IMG/VR virus record: IMGVR_UViG_2690316188_000015
Length of the DNA stretch: 6,926 bases
Reading direction: 5' to 3' (one strand)
Source: a virus
Lineage: Duplodnaviria > Heunggongvirae > Uroviricota > Caudoviricetes
Below the pieces are notes generated by a model. The model was not told where the DNA came from. It worked only from the letters and a program-made list of their open reading frames with translations, and did not search any database. Shown piece after piece: positions 1 to 6,926 of the stretch (positions within the stretch are counted from its first letter, which is position 1; every line of letters starts with the position of its first letter). Position numbers and translations under genes: made by a program.

Positions 1-536
1 AATGCCGAACCACCACGACAGCATGGTACCAGCAGGATCCCCGCGTTATTCGGGATATACGGGAGCAGTTTTTTGGCAATATGTAAGCCCTGGCCGACAC
101 AGCCGTACTGCCCTTTGCTCAGGTCTGCCTTCGGATGATTCAGCGTACTCATATCCTGCACATCATGCAGGCAGTGGTCGGCCGGAATAATATCGTTATA
201 TCTGCATGCAGCCCCACCCGGCGTAACTGTACTGCGGCGCGCCAGCTGTTTAATGCGCGGATCCGGAGCATCGTATGAATCCGGCAGCGGAAGCCCTTCA
301 CCGTAAGCCATGGCATTGGACTGCCCGGCCAGTACGATGACGTAGTACCAATCCGGCTCAGTTGCACCACTGACCACCACATCACCTTCTGCTGTAATCG
401 CCTGCATCAGGGTATAAGGGGTTATGGCCACCGGACTACCAAACGGCTGCCAGCCCTCTTTCAGTTTGTGTGTCAGCTTTTCCGCAAGGTCTGACGGCGA
501 CGCCGCCCTGACAACATCATAATGTTTAAATGTCAT
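1..536 (-). CDS. NanS-p-like protein: N-terminal DUF1737-like region plus SGNH/sialate O-acetylesterase domain; partial, 3' end beyond window
   Basis: ATG at 536-534 preceded by GGAGG (minus strand). Frame is open for 178 codons to the window edge. Translation starts MTFKHYDVVRAASPSDLAEKL and contains the GQSNA motif typical of SGNH esterases. Not in the ORF track because it has no stop in the window. Confidence 0.75.
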   Translation of the reverse strand, partial: MTFKHYDVVRAASPSDLAEKLTHKLKEGWQPFGSPVAITPYTLMQAITAEGDVVVSGATEPDWYYVIVLAGQSNAMAYGEGLPLPDSYDAPDPRIKQLARRSTVTPGGAACRYNDIIPADHCLHDVQDMSTLNHPKADLSKGQYGCVGQGLHIAKKLLPYIPNNAGILLVPCCRGGSA

Positions 537-720
537 TATTCCTCCCGGCCGGGATAGTGTATTAAATCAGATATGGAGTGGGCTGTAGTCCGGAAGCCTG
601 AATGACACACGGGGACTACAGCCCAAGAAATGAAAAAAGGCCACGCAGTTGCGCAGCCTGATAAACCCTGGTTAAAATCCACACGATAACAACACAACAA
701 TATCAGTATCTCATGCTATT

Positions 721-746
721 GCCCGAACCCATTCGGGCATTTTTTA
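721..746 (+). terminator. Rho-independent terminator, plus-strand orientation
   Basis: Hairpin GCCCGAA-CCCA-TTCGGGC (721-738) followed by A then TTTTTT (740-745) on the plus strand. Confidence 0.5.
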
Positions 747-750
747 CCCA

Positions 751-778
751 TAAAAAATGCCCCTCCGGAGAGGGGCAT
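751..778 (-). terminator. Rho-independent terminator, minus-strand orientation, downstream of the TerB-like gene
   Basis: 9-bp stem ATGCCCCTC / GAGGGGCAT with CGGA loop (757-778), followed on the minus strand by TTTTTT. Confidence 0.6.
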
Positions 779-943
779 GTTTGCATGCACATTCTTTTTC
801 TTGCATGGTGCCGGGTGCCTCCCGGTGAATTCAGTATCAGCACCTGAATCCGCGATTATCCCATATACCTGGTTGCTGATCGCCCCTCCGCACAGGGGGA
901 TTCACCATGCAGAAGTGTTTTTAATAAACAGCAAACAAAAAAA

Positions 944-1111
944 TCAAGCATTATGCAGGCTGTTTCTTTTTATCACCGGCCACAGCAATACCACAATGCC
1001 GCAGACCAGCACCCCATCCGCCAGCACCGACATGATTCTGCTGGTGAGATCCACCATCACCACCAGAAACAGCAGGAGTGCAGCCACAGCCAGGCGCAGT
1101 TTTACCGTCAC
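944..1111 (-). CDS. Candidate small hydrophobic membrane peptide (55 aa from GTG), possibly translationally coupled to the upstream TerB-like gene
   Basis: GTG start overlaps the TerB-like stop (GTGA overlap). Translation VTVKLRLAVAALLLFLVVMVDLTSRIMSVLADGVLVCGIVVLLWPVIKRNSLHNA has two hydrophobic segments. Below the ORF-track size cutoff. GC-rich region with several open frames, so it may be spurious. Confidence 0.25.
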   Translation of the reverse strand: MTVKLRLAVAALLLFLVVMVDLTSRIMSVLADGVLVCGIVVLLWPVIKRNSLHNA

Positions 1112-1539
1112 AGGTGATTCTCCAGACGAAGACCCAGAACACCGGCAATCTCTTCCAGCACCTTGCGCTCTTCCGGCTCAATTTCGCCGTCTGCCTCCGC
1201 AATGGCCACCGCCACATCCAGCACATCTTCCGCTTCACGCGTATCGTGTTTCACATCCTCAATCTCGCGTAACGCGGCACGACGACCAATTTTAAAATTG
1301 GTATCCAGCTGACCGATAATGGTTGCGCTAATCGCATTAATTTCCGAGGTAAACGCAGACAACGCAGGCTGATTACGTAAGACCTGTTCGATCTTCGCTT
1401 TCTCGGATGCCTCGCATTCACCATCTGCATAGGCCACCAGGTATGCAGCGTTAATCACCGCCTGTGCCAGATCGCGTTTCTCAAACTTTTTAATTTCCGC
1501 TGCCGCTCTGCGGGTTTTCTTTTTGAAGATTCCAAACAT
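1108..1539 (-). CDS. TerB-like (tellurite-resistance TerB family) protein, 143 aa
   Basis: ATG at 1539-1537 with AGGAAC Shine-Dalgarno 7-8 nt upstream. Protein MFGIFKKK...ADGECEASEKAKIEQVL...EADGEIEPEERKVLEEIAGVLGL has the paired ADG/DG plus acidic-helix organisation of TerB. The ORF-track N-terminal extension (start 1611) lacks an RBS. Confidence 0.75.
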   Translation of the reverse strand: MFGIFKKKTRRAAAEIKKFEKRDLAQAVINAAYLVAYADGECEASEKAKIEQVLRNQPALSAFTSEINAISATIIGQLDTNFKIGRRAALREIEDVKHDTREAEDVLDVAVAIAEADGEIEPEERKVLEEIAGVLGLRLENHL

Positions 1540-1671
1540 CGTGACGTTCCTTTGGGTGGGTGAGCCAACGCCCGGGAGCGATCTGCCCACAGAGAAAGTC
1601 ACACTGACCACTCCGTAAGCTCACCCCCGAAAGGCTCTGTGGTTGATATGCGCCGGGCGTGGCGCAGATAC

Positions 1672-1695
1672 AAAAAAGGCCCGCCGAAGCGAGCC
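1672..1695 (-). terminator. Rho-independent terminator just downstream of the tRNA cluster
   Basis: Minus strand reads GGCUCGC-UUCG-GCGGGCC followed by UUUUUU: 7-bp stem with one G-U pair and a UUCG tetraloop, about 14 nt past the tRNA-Arg 3' end. Confidence 0.6.
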
Positions 1696-1708
1696 TGGAA
1701 AATAAGTG

Positions 1709-1785
1709 TGGCGCGTTGTAGTGGAGTCTAACCACTGACCGATTGCTTAGAAGGCAATTGCTCTGTCCGACTGAGCTAACAACGC
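1709..1785 (-). tRNA. argO: tRNA-Arg (anticodon UCU), 77 nt with encoded CCA
   Basis: Manual fold: acceptor GCGTTGT/ACAACGC, D-stem GCTC/GAGC, anticodon stem ATTGC/GCAAT with loop CTTCTAA, CCA encoded. The T-loop TTAGACT is atypical. The symbol is assigned by position in the phage tRNA trio, not by sequence match. Confidence 0.7.
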
Positions 1786-1798
1786 ATGATGCTGATAA

Positions 1799-1875
1799 TG
1801 GACCGCCATCGGGGACTTGAACCCCGCGCAGCCAGCTTCGAAGGCTGGCGCTCTGTCCCGATGAGCTAATAGCGG
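1799..1875 (-). tRNA. argN: tRNA-Arg (anticodon UCG), 77 nt with encoded CCA
   Basis: Acceptor CCGCTAT/ATGGCGG (one G-U pair), D-stem GCTC/GAGC, anticodon stem CCAGC/GCTGG with loop CTTCGAA, T-arm CGGGG-TTCAAGT-CCCCG, CCA encoded. Symbol assigned by position only. Confidence 0.75.
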
Positions 1876-1884
1876 TATGTAATA

Positions 1885-1960
1885 TGGTGGCCCTTGCTGG
1901 ATTTGAACCAGCGACCTGGCGATTATGAGTCGCTCGCTCTCACCACTGAGCTAAAGGGCC
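1885..1960 (-). tRNA. ileZ: tRNA with CAU anticodon, ileX/ileZ-like (tRNA-Ile2 reading AUA after lysidine modification; formally a Met anticodon), 76 nt
   Basis: Sequence GGCCCTTTAGCTCAGTGGTGAGAGCGAGCGACTCATAATCGCCAGGTCGCTGGTTCAAATCCAGCAAGGGCCACCA closely resembles E. coli tRNA-Ile2 as recalled; canonical cloverleaf with T-loop TTCAAAT. Confidence 0.8.
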
Positions 1961-1988
1961 GAGCCAAAAAATAATAATCAGATGAAAA

Positions 1989-2702
1989 TCAATAATCAAG
2001 CCCTTGCCTGGATACATATCTGTCTGGCGGGAAGCCATAATAGCGGTGAAATACAGAAATAAAGTAGGACCTGCTTGAATAACCGCATTTTTCTGCTATA
2101 GCCTGTCCATATCCATGCCGGGAACATAACATATTTACAGCAACACGCATCCGCTCTTCCAGCAACAAGCGACTGAACATGCCCCCTTCATTTTTCAGTT
2201 TTGTCTTTAACAAACTCTCACTCATATGCAACTGTAGAGCAATCGCACCAAGCGTCCAGCTTGCTGATATATCTGTCTGAATTATCGCCCTGACTTTGGC
2301 ACTTATGCTGGATAAACATCCACTTAAAAACAATGACATCCGTTCATCTGTTTCAAACAGAGACAGGCAGGCCATCATAAGAAACATATCCGTGGCCTCT
2401 CCGGAAAATCCCTGGCTGGTAATTAAAGCCGCAGCCAACGCAGGATTGTTGGGTTCCAGCAACAGGTAAAGCGGAATGTCAGTCAGACGAGTCCTCGTCA
2501 GCTTATGCTGACTTTCCAGATATTGACTTACGACGGATTCGCTTATATCGACAATTTTAACTTTGCCATAATGCATAAGGAAAAGCTCCCTGATGCATTT
2601 GGTGGCCAGAACAACTGAGCCTGGCTTAAGTGACAACGTATCCTTTTCAAGAAAAATATTAATTGGGGAGCAAACCATGATAACTGAACAGACAACAGCC
2701 AT
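1989..2702 (-). CDS. AraC/XylS-family transcriptional regulator (AppY/YdeO/GadX-like subfamily), 237 aa, intact copy
   Basis: C-terminal region has both AraC-type helix-turn-helix motifs (WTLGAIALQLHMSESLLKTKLKNEGG... and AIAEKCGYSSRSYFISVFHRYYGFPP). N-terminus MAVVCSV resembles AppY-type regulators. Low GC. Confidence 0.85.
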   Translation of the reverse strand: MAVVCSVIMVCSPINIFLEKDTLSLKPGSVVLATKCIRELFLMHYGKVKIVDISESVVSQYLESQHKLTRTRLTDIPLYLLLEPNNPALAAALITSQGFSGEATDMFLMMACLSLFETDERMSLFLSGCLSSISAKVRAIIQTDISASWTLGAIALQLHMSESLLKTKLKNEGGMFSRLLLEERMRVAVNMLCSRHGYGQAIAEKCGYSSRSYFISVFHRYYGFPPDRYVSRQGLDY

Positions 2703-2737
2703 TATAATTTTACTTTCATTAGCAATTGGTTAGCTCA

Positions 2738-2768
2738 ATTATAGCCCCAAAAGGTAAATTATCATCAA
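2738..2768 (-). promoter_or_regulatory. Possible sigma70 promoter for the AraC-family gene: -35 TTGATG, 19-bp spacer, -10 TATAAT
   Basis: Perfect TATAAT on the minus strand about 36 nt upstream of the ATG. The -35 is weak and the spacer is long. An identical copy lies at 4129-4159 upstream of the truncated paralog. Confidence 0.3.
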
Positions 2769-2821
2769 CACATAAGCAAAGGACTGACAGGTGTCGCCCC
2801 CCCACCAGCCGCCCATTCACC

Positions 2822-2850
2822 ACAAATAAAAAGCCTTCAGGACTGAAGGC
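2822..2850 (-). terminator. Rho-independent terminator overlapping the stop codon of the 65-aa ORF
   Basis: Minus strand reads GCCTTCA-GTCC-TGAAGGC followed by TTTTTATTT. Confidence 0.6.
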
Positions 2851-3034
2851 GTCTGTAACAACCGCACTGATAGTCTGCCAGACCCGCCATAACAAGCTGG
2901 GTCAGTATTAACTGGCAGCGTTCGCGTGAAAGGTAAGTATTCTGCGCAATCTCCCCGACTGTCGCCGGTTCGGTAACGCTTAATTCATCAAACACAACTC
3001 TGGCGGTTTCTGTCATATCCTGCTGTTTCAGCAT
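2837..3034 (-). CDS. Small hypothetical protein (65 aa, or 59 aa from the second ATG), possible helix-turn-helix DNA-binding protein; copy A
   Basis: ORF with AAGGG about 9 nt upstream of the ATG. The only difference from copy B in this ORF is a synonymous change (GTT vs GTC Val at codon 20). Segment TVGEIAQNTYLSRERCQLILTQL is HTH-like. Function unknown. Confidence 0.5.
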   Translation of the reverse strand: MLKQQDMTETARVVFDELSVTEPATVGEIAQNTYLSRERCQLILTQLVMAGLADYQCGCYRRLQS

Positions 3035-3158
3035 GTCTTTTTACCCTTTCCGGTTAACGTGACATACCAATAACTCTTGTCTAAAAAGCCAGCAAGATAA
3101 AAAGCCAGTATTCACGACCACCAGCGTGTTTACTGTACTGCACCAGGTTTACAGGTAC

Positions 3159-3180
3159 AAAAAAACCGCTCAGCGGCGGG
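3159..3180 (-). terminator. Weak candidate terminator in the tail of repeat copy A
   Basis: Minus strand has a short CCGC/GCGG stem followed by TTTTTTT. The homologous site in copy B has a 5-bp stem. Confidence 0.35.
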
Positions 3181-3312
3181 TTTAAGTTGTGTGGCGAAGT
3201 AACCACTCTTAACACACTAATAGCATTTTTGTTATAACACAAGTAGCTCATTCAGTATTTTTAGAATCTTGACTTTCTTAAGCACGGAGAACTCTGAATA
3301 CCAAACATAAAA

Positions 3313-3546
3313 TCAATTATCTTCCAGGCCGGATGCTATCAACGAAAGCCTCTCAAAAAACGCTGTAGCAGCCTTGTCCAAAGTTGAATAAGTACTGTAT
3401 TCTCCGTGTTCGGGACCAACCACTACCCATGGTCGTCTTTTTGGGATTCGGGACTTCTCAGAAATCACTGTTCCAGATATACCAATATCAATTGTTACAC
3501 CTGTTATTATTTTCTCTTCATCTCTTTCCCTGAACTCAATTGCCAT
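3313..3546 (-). CDS. Hypothetical 77-aa ORF in the unique segment between the two repeat copies; possibly a gene remnant
   Basis: ORF-track ORF starting 19 bp inside the unique segment. No Shine-Dalgarno (A-rich upstream). No family recognised. Confidence 0.25.
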   Translation of the reverse strand: MAIEFRERDEEKIITGVTIDIGISGTVISEKSRIPKRRPWVVVGPEHGEYSTYSTLDKAATAFFERLSLIASGLEDN

Positions 3547-4093
3547 AAATGCCGTTTTTTTTTATGAACATGCCCCCTTCATTTTTCAGTTTTGTCTTTA
3601 ACAAACTCTCACTCATATGCAACTGTAGAGCAATCGCACCAAGCGTCCAGCTTGCTGATATATCTGTCTGAATTATCGCCCTGACTTTGGCACTTATGCT
3701 GGATAAACATCCACTTAAAAACAATGACATCCGTTCATCTGTTTCAAACAGAGACAGGCAGGCCATCATAAGAAACATATCCGTGGCCTCTCCGGAAAAT
3801 CCCTGGCTGGTAATTAAAGCCGCAGCCAACGCAGGATTGTTGGGTTCCAGCAACAGGTAAAGCGGAATGTCAGTCAGACGAGTCCTCGTCAGCTTATGCT
3901 GACTTTCCAGATATTGACTTACGACGGATTCGCTTATATCGACAATTTTAACTTTGCCATAATGCATAAGGAAAAGCTCCCTGATGCATTTGGTGGCCAG
4001 AACAACTGAGCCTGGCTTAAGTGACAACGTATCCTTTTCAAGAAAAATATTAATTGGGGAGCAAACCATGATAACTGAACAGACAACAGCCAT
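3536..4093 (-). pseudogene. Truncated paralog of the AraC-family regulator: N-terminal domain plus first HTH, residues 1-176 identical to copy A, then 9 unrelated codons and a stop
   Basis: Identical to copy A through ...KLKNEGGMF, then diverges exactly at the repeat boundary (3565) into IKKNGIYGN-stop. The second HTH is missing. Confidence 0.7.
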
Positions 4094-4212
4094 TATAATT
4101 TTACTTTCATTAGCAATTGGTTAGCTCAATTATAGCCCCAAAAGGTAAATTATCATCAACACATAAGCAAAGGACTGACAGGTGTCGCCCCCCCACCAGC
4201 CGCCCATTCACC

Positions 4213-4241
4213 ACAAATAAAAAGCCTTCAGGACTGAAGGC
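4213..4241 (-). terminator. Rho-independent terminator after the 65-aa ORF, copy B
   Basis: Identical to the terminator at 2822-2850. Confidence 0.6.
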
Positions 4242-4425
4242 GTCTGTAACAACCGCACTGATAGTCTGCCAGACCCGCCATAACAAGCTGGGTCAGTATT
4301 AACTGGCAGCGTTCGCGTGAAAGGTAAGTATTCTGCGCAATCTCCCCGACTGTCGCCGGTTCGGTGACGCTTAATTCATCAAACACAACTCTGGCGGTTT
4401 CTGTCATATCCTGCTGTTTCAGCAT
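4228..4425 (-). CDS. Small hypothetical protein (65 aa), copy B; protein identical to copy A
   Basis: Same ORF as 2837-3034 within the duplicated core. Confidence 0.5.
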   Translation of the reverse strand: MLKQQDMTETARVVFDELSVTEPATVGEIAQNTYLSRERCQLILTQLVMAGLADYQCGCYRRLQS

Positions 4426-4548
4426 GTCTTTTTACCCTTTCCGGTTAACGTGACACACCAATAACTCTTGCCGAAAAAGCCAGCAAGCTGAAAGACCTGT
4501 ATTAATAACTACCAGCACATTTAACGCACTGCGCTACTTTGCGGGCAC

Positions 4549-4571
4549 AAAAAACCCGCTCAGAGGCGGGG
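4549..4571 (-). terminator. Candidate rho-independent terminator between the CPBP gene and repeat copy B
   Basis: Minus strand reads CCCGC-CTCTGA-GCGGG followed by TTTTTTG, about 150 nt downstream of the CPBP stop. Confidence 0.5.
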
Positions 4572-4711
4572 TCAAGCTATGCGGCGAAATAACCACTCTT
4601 AACAGCATACCTGATTTTTTACGTACGTAAATGCTTTGCCGTGCATATTTTTCATGCAAATGTCACGTCCTGCTATTTTTCAGTCTTATAAATTTAAAAC
4701 CATAGAAAAAA

Positions 4712-5530
4712 TCAATTATGTTTTAAAAATGGATAGGTAAAGAATAACAAGTGACACAGATTCAAACCAAAATGGAAAAGGGTGGCAACCCACAAACGCC
4801 CACTCCACATCCATGACAATCCATACACAACACCAGATAACGTGGCAAATAATACAAGTAAAGCACCACCTGAATAGTGATAAAAACCAAACAACAAAGC
4901 CGCCACAATTAATGCAACCAATGGAGACGTTACTTCTGATAGCCGTGATTGAATATACCCTCTAAATAATGATTCCTCTGCCAGAGACACAAAAAACAAA
5001 TTAGCCAATATAAACTCTGGCAACCACTCAGGAAAATGAATCTCTGGCTTTAATCCACCAAAAAAAACAGCCAAAAACAGGATAAGAGGAACAGAGAGCG
5101 ACAGAGCCCCCCACTTCCACAAAGACACTTCTGATTTTACTTCTTTTTTAAACAAAGAAGATGTACACAGGACTAACAAAAATGGCACCAGCGCTTTATC
5201 AAAATTAAAATACATTGTATAGGGAGTACTTTGAGGGCCAACAGTAACAGAATTTAGCACTACAGGATTGTGAAACCCTGGCCATAGATGGAAAGATAAT
5301 GCTATGGCTGATAAAACTATGCCAACTTCATATATAGATTTAGCCCAGGCGTTATATTTCCAGTTGAACTTCAAAATAATAAAAAAAACGATTGTAGCAA
5401 CAAAAAATAACACCGACCAATCAATAATATCATTAAGCACAGCCAGGACAACAGACACCGTCAACAATGAAAAAGCCACTACCTTATGCCAACTGAGAGT
5501 TGACAGTGACAGTACTAACACAATCCACAT
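4712..5530 (-). CDS. CPBP-family (CAAX protease / Abi-domain, PF02517-like) intramembrane metalloprotease, about 272 aa
   Basis: ATG at 5530-5528 with AGGAG and a 5-nt spacer (the ORF-track GTG at 5536 is rejected). Polytopic hydrophobic protein with all three CPBP motifs: EESLFR (EExxxR), FGFYH (FxxxH) and HFGLN (HxxxN). Low GC, roughly 38% by eye. Confidence 0.8.
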   Translation of the reverse strand: MWIVLVLSLSTLSWHKVVAFSLLTVSVVLAVLNDIIDWSVLFFVATIVFFIILKFNWKYNAWAKSIYEVGIVLSAIALSFHLWPGFHNPVVLNSVTVGPQSTPYTMYFNFDKALVPFLLVLCTSSLFKKEVKSEVSLWKWGALSLSVPLILFLAVFFGGLKPEIHFPEWLPEFILANLFFVSLAEESLFRGYIQSRLSEVTSPLVALIVAALLFGFYHYSGGALLVLFATLSGVVYGLSWMWSGRLWVATLFHFGLNLCHLLFFTYPFLKHN

Positions 5531-5681
5531 AAGCACTCCTTTTATTTAATGATGAAGATTGATTATCAATATTTTCAATTCACCAGGCAACATTTTATCT
5601 ACCTTCCACAATACATGACCATCAAAAAATAAACATGTTAATTATAAACACAGAAAACATAACCCTCATCACTATATATCC
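5531..5681 (-). promoter_or_regulatory. AT-rich region immediately downstream of Q; expected location of the Q-dependent late promoter and Q-utilisation site
   Basis: Positional inference from lambdoid phage organisation. Several -10-like hexamers are present (TATAAT, TAAAAT) but no element could be assigned confidently. Confidence 0.3.
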
Positions 5682-6053
5682 CTACCGCATATCCATATCT
5701 AACCGGACATTCAGAGCCATAAGCATTCCTTCAATAATACCTTCCGCTTTATAAAGCCTTTTACCAATAAGCCCATCAGAACATCTATGCTTACGTGCAA
5801 GAGCCATAAATGTCATTCCACCTACGTAATAATCCACCAACAAATCGTGCAAATACTGATTATTCTTGTTTAATCGTGCCATACAACCACAAATTATCAT
5901 GGCGTCATCATCAGAACACTGAGGACGTGATTTCACTTTAGTCGGGATTAATCCTTTAAAACCAGCAGCTATCGAGGGCCATGTTACATCTTCATGATTA
6001 TTTGCTGCCCATGCCCCCCATCGCTCAAGAACCATCTGGATATCACGCGCCAT
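5682..6053 (-). CDS. Q: Late-gene antiterminator Q (QuuD/phage-82-type), 123 aa from the ATG
   Basis: Protein [25 protein letters not shown]...[14 protein letters not shown]... closely resembles E. coli prophage QuuD-type Q as recalled. GAGGTGG Shine-Dalgarno before the ATG at 6053; start overlaps the end of rusA. Confidence 0.85.
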
Positions 6054-6414
6054 CGTTACCACCTCTGATTTCGTAAATCTTCACGCCCAGCCGTCCACCT
6101 GGCACAGGCTGACCGCGCACAATATTGATTTCATCAAACTGCTCGTCATCAATGAGCACTTCCGCATGCGTCAGCGCATCCAGCGGTGCTTTCAGAATGT
6201 TGTCCAGGTCACGGCGGCGCTTATCCGGTGGTTCTGCAATAATTTTTATTGCCAGCCGTCCGGACAGGCTTAATTTCAGCCGCTGCTGGCGAACAATAAG
6301 CGCCACAGCCCGGCGATAACGCTCACCGGCTTTTGATACAAAATATGTGCTGCCACGACGTCGCCAGTAGGTGTTCACCGTCGGCGGGTAAGGCAAAACA
6401 AACTCTATACGCAT
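6043..6414 (-). CDS. rusA: RusA-family Holliday-junction resolvase, 123 aa
   Basis: AAGAGG Shine-Dalgarno 6 nt before the ATG at 6414. Motifs [19 protein letters not shown] and GGRLGV match the RusA family (compare DLP12 RusA ...PDRRRRDLDNLQKAAFDAL...). Position immediately upstream of Q is typical. Confidence 0.85.
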
Positions 6415-6426
6415 CAGTAACCTCTT

Positions 6427-6926
6427 TTACCCGAGCACGCCGGTTGCAAAAGCGTGATCAAGAAAACGAAAAATTAAATCAACCTGGGAACCATGCTTTT
6501 CTTCGAACGCCAGCGGATCCGCATGAAGCTCGTTGTGATGCTCCCGACACAGCGGTAGCGTGAAAATATCGTGGGATTTTGTTCCCATTCCACCCTGACC
6601 ATGACCAATCAGATGATGAGGATCGTCCGCTGGCTTACCACAACACGCACACGGCTGTGTCTTTACCCAGCGTGTGTATTTCTCATTTACCCAGCGGCGA
6701 CGTTTAGGTCGTTTCATGAAGGATTCCGGAGACTCCGGATCAACGGCAATGCTGACCACCGTCTTTTCCTGTGGTGGGTTCTGTTGCTGGTGGGTGTGAG
6801 GCGGTAGCGCAATATTTTTTGTGCGCTGCTTCAGTATGCTGGTGGCGGTCTGTTCTCCCGGTATGATGTCGCTTTCACGGTATACGGAGCGGATTTTTTC
6901 CGCCGGTAATCCCAGAGAACGACGCG
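6427..6926 (-). CDS. DUF968-like protein with HNH-like Cys/His cluster; partial, 5' end beyond window
   Basis: The reading frame is open from the window edge (6926) to the stop at 6427. The ORF-track GTG at 6759 is only the first in-window start codon. Motif CACCGKPADDPHHLIGHG...CREHHNELH is present. Confidence 0.65.
   Translation of the reverse strand, partial: RRSLGLPAEKIRSVYRESDIIPGEQTATSILKQRTKNIALPPHTHQQQNPPQEKTVVSIAVDPESPESFMKRPKRRRWVNEKYTRWVKTQPCACCGKPADDPHHLIGHGQGGMGTKSHDIFTLPLCREHHNELHADPLAFEEKHGSQVDLIFRFLDHAFATGVLG

Follow-up and report, generated by a model that had tools for sequence, protein, structure and literature searches.

In phage lambda, the Q antiterminator converts RNA polymerase to a terminator-resistant form at the late promoter, pR', and Q proteins act on polymerase initiating at their cognate promoter. 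Lambda pR' is constitutive, its 6S RNA leader is terminated at tR', and Q is loaded at the promoter. Lambda-like late-promoter logic has been discussed for Shiga toxin (Stx) phages, in which a constitutive pR' gives a terminated short transcript in lysogens (PMC7547250), and Q of these phages has likewise been stated to act on polymerase started at its cognate promoter (PMC6266700). In prophages Sp5 (933W type) and Sp15 of Escherichia coli O157:H7 Sakai, the pR'-StxS-tR' unit abuts the Q gene, and its leader is the 258-nt non-coding RNA StxS. Lambdoid late regions also carry morons; as outlined in PMC4104026, which cites Juhala 2000 and Hendrix 2000, these are extra genes with a factor-independent terminator and often a promoter of their own. 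According to the same outline, the prophage expresses them and late transcription reads through them (PMC4104026).

Here, a 6,926-nt stretch of phage DNA, IMG/VR virus record IMGVR_UViG_2690316188_000015 (hereafter the window), was compared with these systems. Megablast of the window returned lambdoid prophages in pathogenic E. coli, and positions 3565-6926 showed 98.3% DNA identity to Sakai Sp4, with the same gene order. The genes of interest are all on the minus strand, co-oriented between the Q gene and, in relatives, the holin gene; because the holin gene comes after nanS-p in these relatives, the window corresponds to the Q-to-lysis region. As judged by gene content and homology, it is the moron-rich part of an Sp4-like lambdoid prophage from pathogenic E. 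coli. Its late promoter is predicted to be an 80-nt element that is separated from the Q gene by a cargo gene for a CPBP-type membrane protease, whereas the unit abuts Q in Sp5 and Sp15, and the predicted leader holds a 65-aa open reading frame (ORF) where the Stx phages hold StxS. The features that carry this assignment are as follows.

5682-6053, minus strand: gene for the Q antiterminator (Q933/PF06530 family, allele class A; Pfam score 175 bits; ATG at 6053)
4712-5530, minus strand: gene for a CPBP/Rce1-like membrane protease (PF02517, 70.6 bits)
4549-4631, minus strand: predicted pR', copy v1, homologous to the region directly after Q933 in Sakai Sp5 and Sp15
4631-4626, minus strand: -35 hexamer TTTACG of pR' v1, within the palindrome TTTACGTACGTAAA (4631-4618)
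4609-4604, minus strand: -10 hexamer TATGCT of pR' v1, with the predicted transcription start site (TSS) at A4597
4603-4590, minus strand: conserved initial transcribed sequence (core) of pR' v1, GTTAAGAGTGGTTA
4570-4555, minus strand: hairpin in pR' v1, five GC pairs, then T6 at 4554-4549
4228-4425, minus strand: 65-aa ORF, first copy (phrog_331)
4241-4224 (full extent 4219-4241), minus strand: terminator of the first 65-aa ORF, 7-bp stem, T5, -10.5 kcal/mol

In both Sakai Sp5 (Stx2a) and Sp15 (Stx1), a homologous element directly follows Q933, and a start placed 7 nt after its -10 hexamer lies exactly 258 nt from the point where the T-run of the downstream terminator ends. StxS-L, the pR' transcript mapped by dRNA-seq and Term-seq, is 258 nt long (Sy 2020, PMC7547250). 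This match in the two prophages therefore identifies the 80-nt element as pR' of the Q933 family, the start in the window being placed by homology and thus predicted. The element (4549-4631 and, in a second copy, 3159-3242) recurs in 4,329 of 5,426 E. coli genomes. The core GTTAAGAGTGGTTA was present in all 30 non-redundant loci with a small (PF06530) Q upstream of the 65-aa gene and in none of the 13 loci with a 251-aa Q (Q251), all of which had the hairpin alone. Across 19 variants, the -10 hexamer abuts the core, with A at position 2 and T at position 6 invariant, and a -35-like hexamer (TTTACG or TTTACA in class A) lies 16-17 nt upstream inside a short palindrome that is followed by an A-run. 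Homology between loci of differing context begins at 4604, the last base of the -10 hexamer.

Neither the pR' core nor the palindrome was found between the Q and CPBP genes, and across loci the element adjoins the 65-aa gene, not Q. In all 30 non-redundant small-Q loci, and in the 13 Q251 loci too, the 65-aa gene comes after the pR' hairpin; its product is winged-helix-like (PHROG 331, E 6e-37), with a weak match to TrmB (E 0.003) below the Pfam cut-off. Since the CPBP gene lies upstream of pR', it falls outside the late transcript as predicted here, and should not be part of Q-dependent transcription. Its slot is that of ECs_1085 in Sakai Sp4. The first strong terminator after pR' v1 is that of the 65-aa ORF, ending at +379, and is therefore taken as the equivalent of tR'. 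Weaker hairpins occur at 4467-4487 and 3104-3125, in the 5' leader between the pR' hairpin and the 65-aa start codon. Compared with lambda, the logic is the same, but lambda Q (PF03589) is unrelated to the PF06530 protein of the window, and lambda lacks both a hairpin with a U-run in the first 50 nt and an ORF in the leader; the window has both.

Palindromes in the -35/spacer region fell into four classes across 54 loci, namely A, TTTAC[GA][TA][AT]CGTAAA, and three others, GCGGTCCGC, CGCGTACGC and GTTATAAC. Each class accompanies one class of Q C-terminal half, whatever gene intervenes (L009, L013, L022, L104, L111, L112, L120, L129 and other loci), and the pairing holds at Q-to-promoter distances of 60 nt to 2.5 kb. 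The window Q, which shares 80.7% aa identity with Q933 of Sakai Sp5 and is annotated as an antiterminator Q family protein in RM13514, and the v1 palindrome both belong to class A. On this pattern, the palindrome is a candidate Q-binding element.

The hairpin and T-run of pR' v1 span +28 to +49. An earlier note, made from the letters of the window, had taken this site for a terminator following the CPBP gene; it proved to be part of the pR' unit, where it is a candidate terminator of upstream transcripts, an attenuator or part of a qut site. The stem is almost invariant among variants, so covariation pair counts would be uninformative. An early GC hairpin with a U-run is conserved in all Q933-family promoter units examined, including those of Sp5/933W and Sp15, which have the same Q family, promoter architecture and initial transcribed sequence as the window, and in which hairpin and U7 lie at +28 to +48. 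The 258-nt StxS-L of Sp5 and Sp15 was seen to hold this GC hairpin and U7 ending at +48 (L169, positions 1871-1893, and L172), on which the text of PMC7547250 is silent.

A copy of the pR' element was also noted in DLP12 of E. coli K-12 (L005, positions 2501-2582), just after IS5 in nmpC and ~120 nt upstream of essD; by its position, nmpC would then apparently sit between quuD and pR'. This copy may overlap the ipeX locus. HnrS (EcOnc10-12) was considered as an identity for the 80-nt element and rejected, with no similarity found to 7 kb around EcOnc10 in Sakai Sp12, where HnrS lies beyond the lysis genes on the opposite strand.

The remaining features of the Q-to-lysis region, outside the second pR' copy described below, are listed here.

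6427-6759, minus strand: DUF968 gene, cut by the window end
6043-6414, minus strand: RusA gene
1989-2702, minus strand: gene for a full-length psr-family AraC-like regulator (HTH_AraC and HTH_18)
1709-1960, minus strand: ileZ(CAT)-argN(TCG)-argO(TCT) tRNA cluster (ARAGORN, Rfam)
1696-1677 (full extent 1671-1696), minus strand: terminator ending the tRNA module, 8-bp stem, T6, -14.6 kcal/mol
1108-1539, minus strand: tciA (TerB family, PF05099; PHROG category 'moron')
944-1111, minus strand: tciB (DUF3927, PF13064; PHROG category 'moron')
746-939, minus strand: small RNA (sRNA) STnc100 (Rfam RF02076, model positions 1-206)
778-757, minus strand: STnc100 terminator, 9 pairs, T6, -21 kcal/mol
684-745, plus strand: anti-GcvB sRNA AgvB (Rfam RF02702, model positions 1-62)
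720-739, plus strand: AgvB terminator, the sole plus-strand site of the strict scan
659-638 (full extent 632-659), minus strand: further strong terminator, 9-bp stem, T6, -14.9 kcal/mol
1-536, minus strand: start of a nanS-p type esterase gene

Terminators were located by a strict scan that called for a stem of 5 or more pairs, 4 or more of them GC, a loop of 3-8 nt and at least 5 T in 6. Seven sites were found on the minus strand, against 0.37±0.57 in 200 dinucleotide-preserving shuffles, and one on the plus strand, against 0.15±0.38; the shuffle maximum was 2. A looser scan gave 23 sites against 7.1±2.2 and also caught weak sites within genes. All six minus-strand hairpins with T-tracts that the earlier note had listed were recovered where it had placed them, and the site at 632-659 was additional to its list. 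Relatives conserve this last terminator, which is situated on the strand opposite AgvB and upstream of the start of that sRNA. The sites are not all independent: the hairpin at 2833-2850 duplicates 4224-4241 without a difference, and the one at 3165-3177 is paralogous to 4555-4570 but has diverged (84% over 67 nt), which leaves an independent count of about five. In the related copies, more than 100 in number, stems are retained and loops vary: the 65-aa terminator is present in most of 129 related copies, with loop variants, the stem of the tRNA-module terminator is retained through 18 variants in 103 copies, and the terminator at 632-659 is retained in 7 variants.

These terminators delimit modules. 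The hairpins that follow each 65-aa ORF and the tRNA cluster were confirmed as terminators at module boundaries. The one at 751-778, read in the earlier note as that of the TerB-like gene, is the STnc100 terminator by Rfam and not directly that of tciA. Its picture of a cassette-like organization, each cargo gene bracketed by terminators, thus stands insofar as the terminators are real and lie at module edges, and fails insofar as three of the six belong to other features. A terminator closes the 65-aa gene, the module of psr and tRNAs, and the module of tciAB and STnc100, as for morons. Gene turnover, another moron trait, was also seen among relatives, where CPBP is replaced by a WYL gene or by nothing, psr by a DNA methylase and a toxin-antitoxin pair, and tciAB by stx2 or by nothing. 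PADLOC returned no defence-system matches for CPBP, WYL, the 65-aa protein, psr or TerB.

To place module joints, the window was compared with 168 related loci, and ends of homology were collapsed into 256 distinct junction types. The seven hairpin zones cover 6.7% of the window, and 63 of these types fell no more than 20 nt away from one (p ~2e-19); in non-coding DNA only, the count was 59 of 137, compared with 24% expected (p ~1e-6). Where the tRNAs are kept and the downstream sequence differs, homology is lost at 1661-1676, and where TerB is kept and the upstream sequence differs, it is lost at 1685-1696. Homology ends therefore flank 1677-1696 from both sides, making this hairpin the shared joint of the tRNA and TerB modules. 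A boundary at 4192, 30 nt downstream of the 65-aa terminator, accounted for 5 junction types in 63 loci, and another hot spot was 4604, the boundary between -10 hexamer and transcript in pR'. The strongest single breakpoint hot spot, 1960-1964 (15 junction types), is the exact 5' edge of tRNA-Ile2 and not a hairpin.

The cargo itself is largely known from Sakai. In Sp4, ECs_1082-ECs_1088 run in the order DUF968, RusA, Q, CAAX protease, ECs_1086, psrA, ileZ-argN-argO and nanS-p. The psr protein of the window is 89.7% identical in aa sequence to ECs_1087 over 195 aa and occupies the same position upstream of ileZ-argN-argO. ECs_1087 has been named psrA (PMC13502914), and this identity places the AraC-like protein of the window among the Psr-family prophage regulators; activity of PsrA in lysogens has been reported (PMC10877973). 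The psr gene has no terminator of its own before the tRNAs, a trio also found in Sakai Sp4 and Sp5; in Sp5, a TSS driving these tRNAs has been reported (PMC7547250). STnc100 (142.7 bits against a gathering score of 47) and AgvB (96.5 bits against 56) were both matched over their full length, STnc100 starting 5 nt after tciB and AgvB being convergent with it. Convergent sRNAs at a moron site downstream of PR' have been described (Tree 2014, PMC4104026), and lysogen phenotypes are in the literature for AgvB (PMC4104026) and StxS (PMC7547250). A weak GcvB-like Rfam match (20.7 bits, E 0.27) was noted at 632-780 on the minus strand, opposite AgvB; such a match is to be expected from the complementarity of AgvB to the GcvB seed and probably does not mark a gene. 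Sp4 differs from the window in having a single pR'-65aa-psr copy and no tciAB, whereas the window, like strain Z1323HEC0108, carries tciAB with STnc100/AgvB, and its second pR'-65aa-psr copy is chimeric.

Promoter-like sites before the cargo were scored against the consensus.

4129-4156 (duplicate at 2738-2765), minus strand: promoter-like site before psr, ATGATA-16-TATAAT, 10/12, best in the window
1971-1999, minus strand: promoter-like site before the tRNAs, 9/12 consensus match
5621-5549, minus strand: three promoter-like sites before CPBP, 9/12 consensus match

Cargo genes had been described earlier as individually promoter-driven in the lysogen; consensus sites agree with this for psr and the tRNAs, and none was predicted for TerB. 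The window thus departs from classical morons in two respects: promoters of its own are consensus matches only, for psr and the tRNAs, and CPBP lies upstream of pR' and not in the late operon.

The second pR' copy belongs to a chimeric segment with the following features.

3565-4093, minus strand: truncated psr-like AraC gene (copy A), partial HTH_AraC match
3313-3546, minus strand: 77-aa ORF, a WYL 3' fragment (matches phrog_8498 positions 129-205)
3159-3242, minus strand: predicted pR', copy v2, with -35 TTGTGT (3242-3237), -10 TAGTGT (3219-3214) and predicted TSS A3207
3238-3231, minus strand: palindrome of pR' v2, GTTATAAC, class D
3177-3165, minus strand: hairpin in pR' v2, 4-5 pairs, T7, -7.0 kcal/mol, weakest of the six
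2837-3034 (2828-3034 with its terminator), minus strand: 65-aa ORF, second copy
2850-2833, minus strand: terminator of the second 65-aa ORF, 7 pairs, T5, -10.5 kcal/mol

Segments 2174-3214 and 3565-4604 are duplicates (a 1.39-kb duplication) that differ by a single mismatch (at 2975) over the first 891 nt and are ~79% alike over the last 150 nt. Positions 1-3563 are 100% identical to strain Z1323HEC0108, and positions 3565-6926 are 99.3% identical to RM13514 and 99.8% to 2013C-3342. At the 3564 join, psr codon 176 runs into the middle part of a WYL gene, of which a 3' fragment (3313-3563) remains; the join contains a single filler T and shows no microhomology. The 77-aa ORF corresponds to the C-terminal part of the S88 WYL protein (205 aa). 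In Z1323HEC0108 and S88, the WYL gene fills the slot held by CPBP in the window. No copy of the psr'::'WYL junction turned up in 5,426 complete E. coli genomes, in a protein-gene index or in contig collections from genomes, metagenomes and viruses; it either arose by a rare illegitimate recombination or is an artefact of assembly. On either origin, the "copy-A tail" cassette of the earlier note is not a regular module, and the hairpin said to follow it is the same element as that after CPBP, from the second pR' copy brought in by the junction. This copy, v2, is 84% identical to v1 over 67 nt, with a weakened hairpin, and its native context is after the WYL gene and a class D Q allele. Its class D palindrome is non-cognate to the window Q, and the window lacks a class D Q. 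In Z1323HEC0108, the WYL gene was noted to be split into two coding sequences, apparently by a change in the length of an A9 run (L007 4018-4028 compared with L008 3633-4250), and this A9 run is the sequence where the chimeric junction of the window begins.

It is likely that the locus is a moron region in which Q is followed by CPBP, pR' and terminator-ended modules, with Q read-through into the lysis genes. On the minus strand the order would be Q, CPBP, pR', terminator-ended modules, then nanS-p and the lysis genes, the modules being the 65-aa gene, psr with the tRNA trio, and tciAB with STnc100, each with one terminator and one more before nanS-p. As to promoter activity, termination efficiency and read-through, we infer that in the lysogen polymerase from the constitutive pR' or from module promoters (psr, tRNAs) would halt at the next terminator, and that upon induction Q would load on polymerase at pR', allowing read-through of all terminators into the lysis genes. 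Read-through by Q-modified polymerase is established for this type of phage (PMC7547250; PMC4104026). The CPBP gene would be expressed only from its own promoter or by early-operon read-through. The terminators may double as joints for module exchange among phages, and the chimeric junction at 3564 would have given the second, non-cognate pR'-65aa-psr copy. The idea of two expression states, put forward in the earlier note, is plausible, and it amounts to the classical moron and pR'-tR' model rather than a new one; a moron layout is already known, having been stated for these very prophages.

Several points weigh against this reading. The -35 and -10 of pR' score only 8/12, so that the consensus scan missed the promoter, and its start is placed by homology plus length arithmetic. 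The Sakai 3' end at +258 means that the +28 to +49 hairpin is at least partly read through without Q, and no Hfq-bound sRNA is listed here in Sp4. Promoter-like sites show no enrichment (16 in the window, compared with 11.4±3.6 in shuffles), and the consensus scan gave none upstream of TerB. The Q/palindrome pairing could partly come from linkage rather than function. Finally, junction types are non-independent and BLAST ends imprecise, so the cassette picture is supported and not proven.

The earlier note placed the cargo inside a Q-antiterminated late operon, and the co-orientation of the genes between Q and holin agrees with this. That the operon starts directly after Q, every cargo gene having its own promoter and terminator, is nevertheless unlikely. 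Such a layout would follow canonical lambda, in which pR' lies directly after Q, the hairpins do follow each named feature in linear order, and three promoter-like sites lie between Q and CPBP (5621-5549); yet the pR' homologue is found downstream of CPBP with nothing like it between Q and CPBP, stays beside the 65-aa gene across loci and co-varies with the Q allele. Moreover, the six terminators include two that duplicate, or are paralogous to, others and one that ends an sRNA, and no TerB promoter was predicted. The clustering of breakpoints on hairpins, and the retention of 1677-1696 by both flanking modules, would also be expected if the hairpins were mainly conserved recombination linkers, with terminator activity a side effect that has no part in setting expression states. 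We regard this as improbable, since stems and U-runs are conserved while loops drift, as selection on RNA structure predicts, the sites are co-oriented with transcription (seven on the minus strand, the lone plus-strand site ending AgvB), and the hot spots 1960-1964 and 4604 are not hairpins. A linker role is in any case compatible with the moron layout and not exclusive of it.

The 80-nt element might instead be a 3' untranslated region or an sRNA module (IpeX-, PasA- or PasC-like) that terminates CPBP, WYL, nmpC or Q. It does follow differing upstream genes, the DLP12 copy lies ~120 nt upstream of essD, and PasA and PasC have been reported near holin genes, tRNAs, RusA and TerB. The 258-nt arithmetic in two Stx phages, however, puts the published pR' start inside the element, and the invariant -10 signature, the strict association with small Q, the co-variation of the palindrome with the Q allele and the lack of relationship to HnrS all make this quite improbable. 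Chance matches in AT-rich intergenic DNA would explain why loose criteria also pick weak sites within genes, and are refuted for the strict sites by the shuffle test; conservation in more than 100 related loci, and the fact that two sites are terminators of Rfam-validated sRNAs, leave such an origin next to no probability.

Beyond the moron layout, a set of more specific proposals is offered tentatively, and their joint truth is possible rather than probable: that pR' is a portable cassette matched to the Q allele, that cargo between Q and pR' is expressed early (N/pR) or autonomously, that the 65-aa gene is constitutive in lysogens, and that the hairpin gives an RNA of ~49 nt or acts as an attenuator. 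On this proposal, the portable parts would be the palindromic candidate Q-binding element, the conserved initial transcript and the early hairpin with U7 at +28 to +49, and pR' would be separable from the Q gene by cargo such as CPBP, WYL or nmpC.

The terminators pointed out in the earlier note are real and non-random and, as a finding, ordinary. What may interest specialists, inference-based as it is, is the cargo placed between Q and pR', the 65-aa gene of the leader, the classes of Q and palindrome, and the conserved early hairpin. A practical correction is that cargo between Q and pR', such as CPBP, is not expected to follow Q, and constitutive production is possible for the 65-aa protein, whose gene is the first after pR'. 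The Q/palindrome pairing, if functional, would help to predict cross-activation of late genes, including stx, among multiple prophages, and the window, in which a cognate pR' and a non-cognate one stand in tandem, would serve as a natural test of how specific Q is. In pathogenic E. coli, lambdoid prophages carry their virulence and fitness cargo (Shiga toxin, Psr regulators, rare tRNAs and anti-sRNAs) in this layout, and the positions of the late promoter and terminators decide which of it is expressed in the lysogen and which depends on induction.

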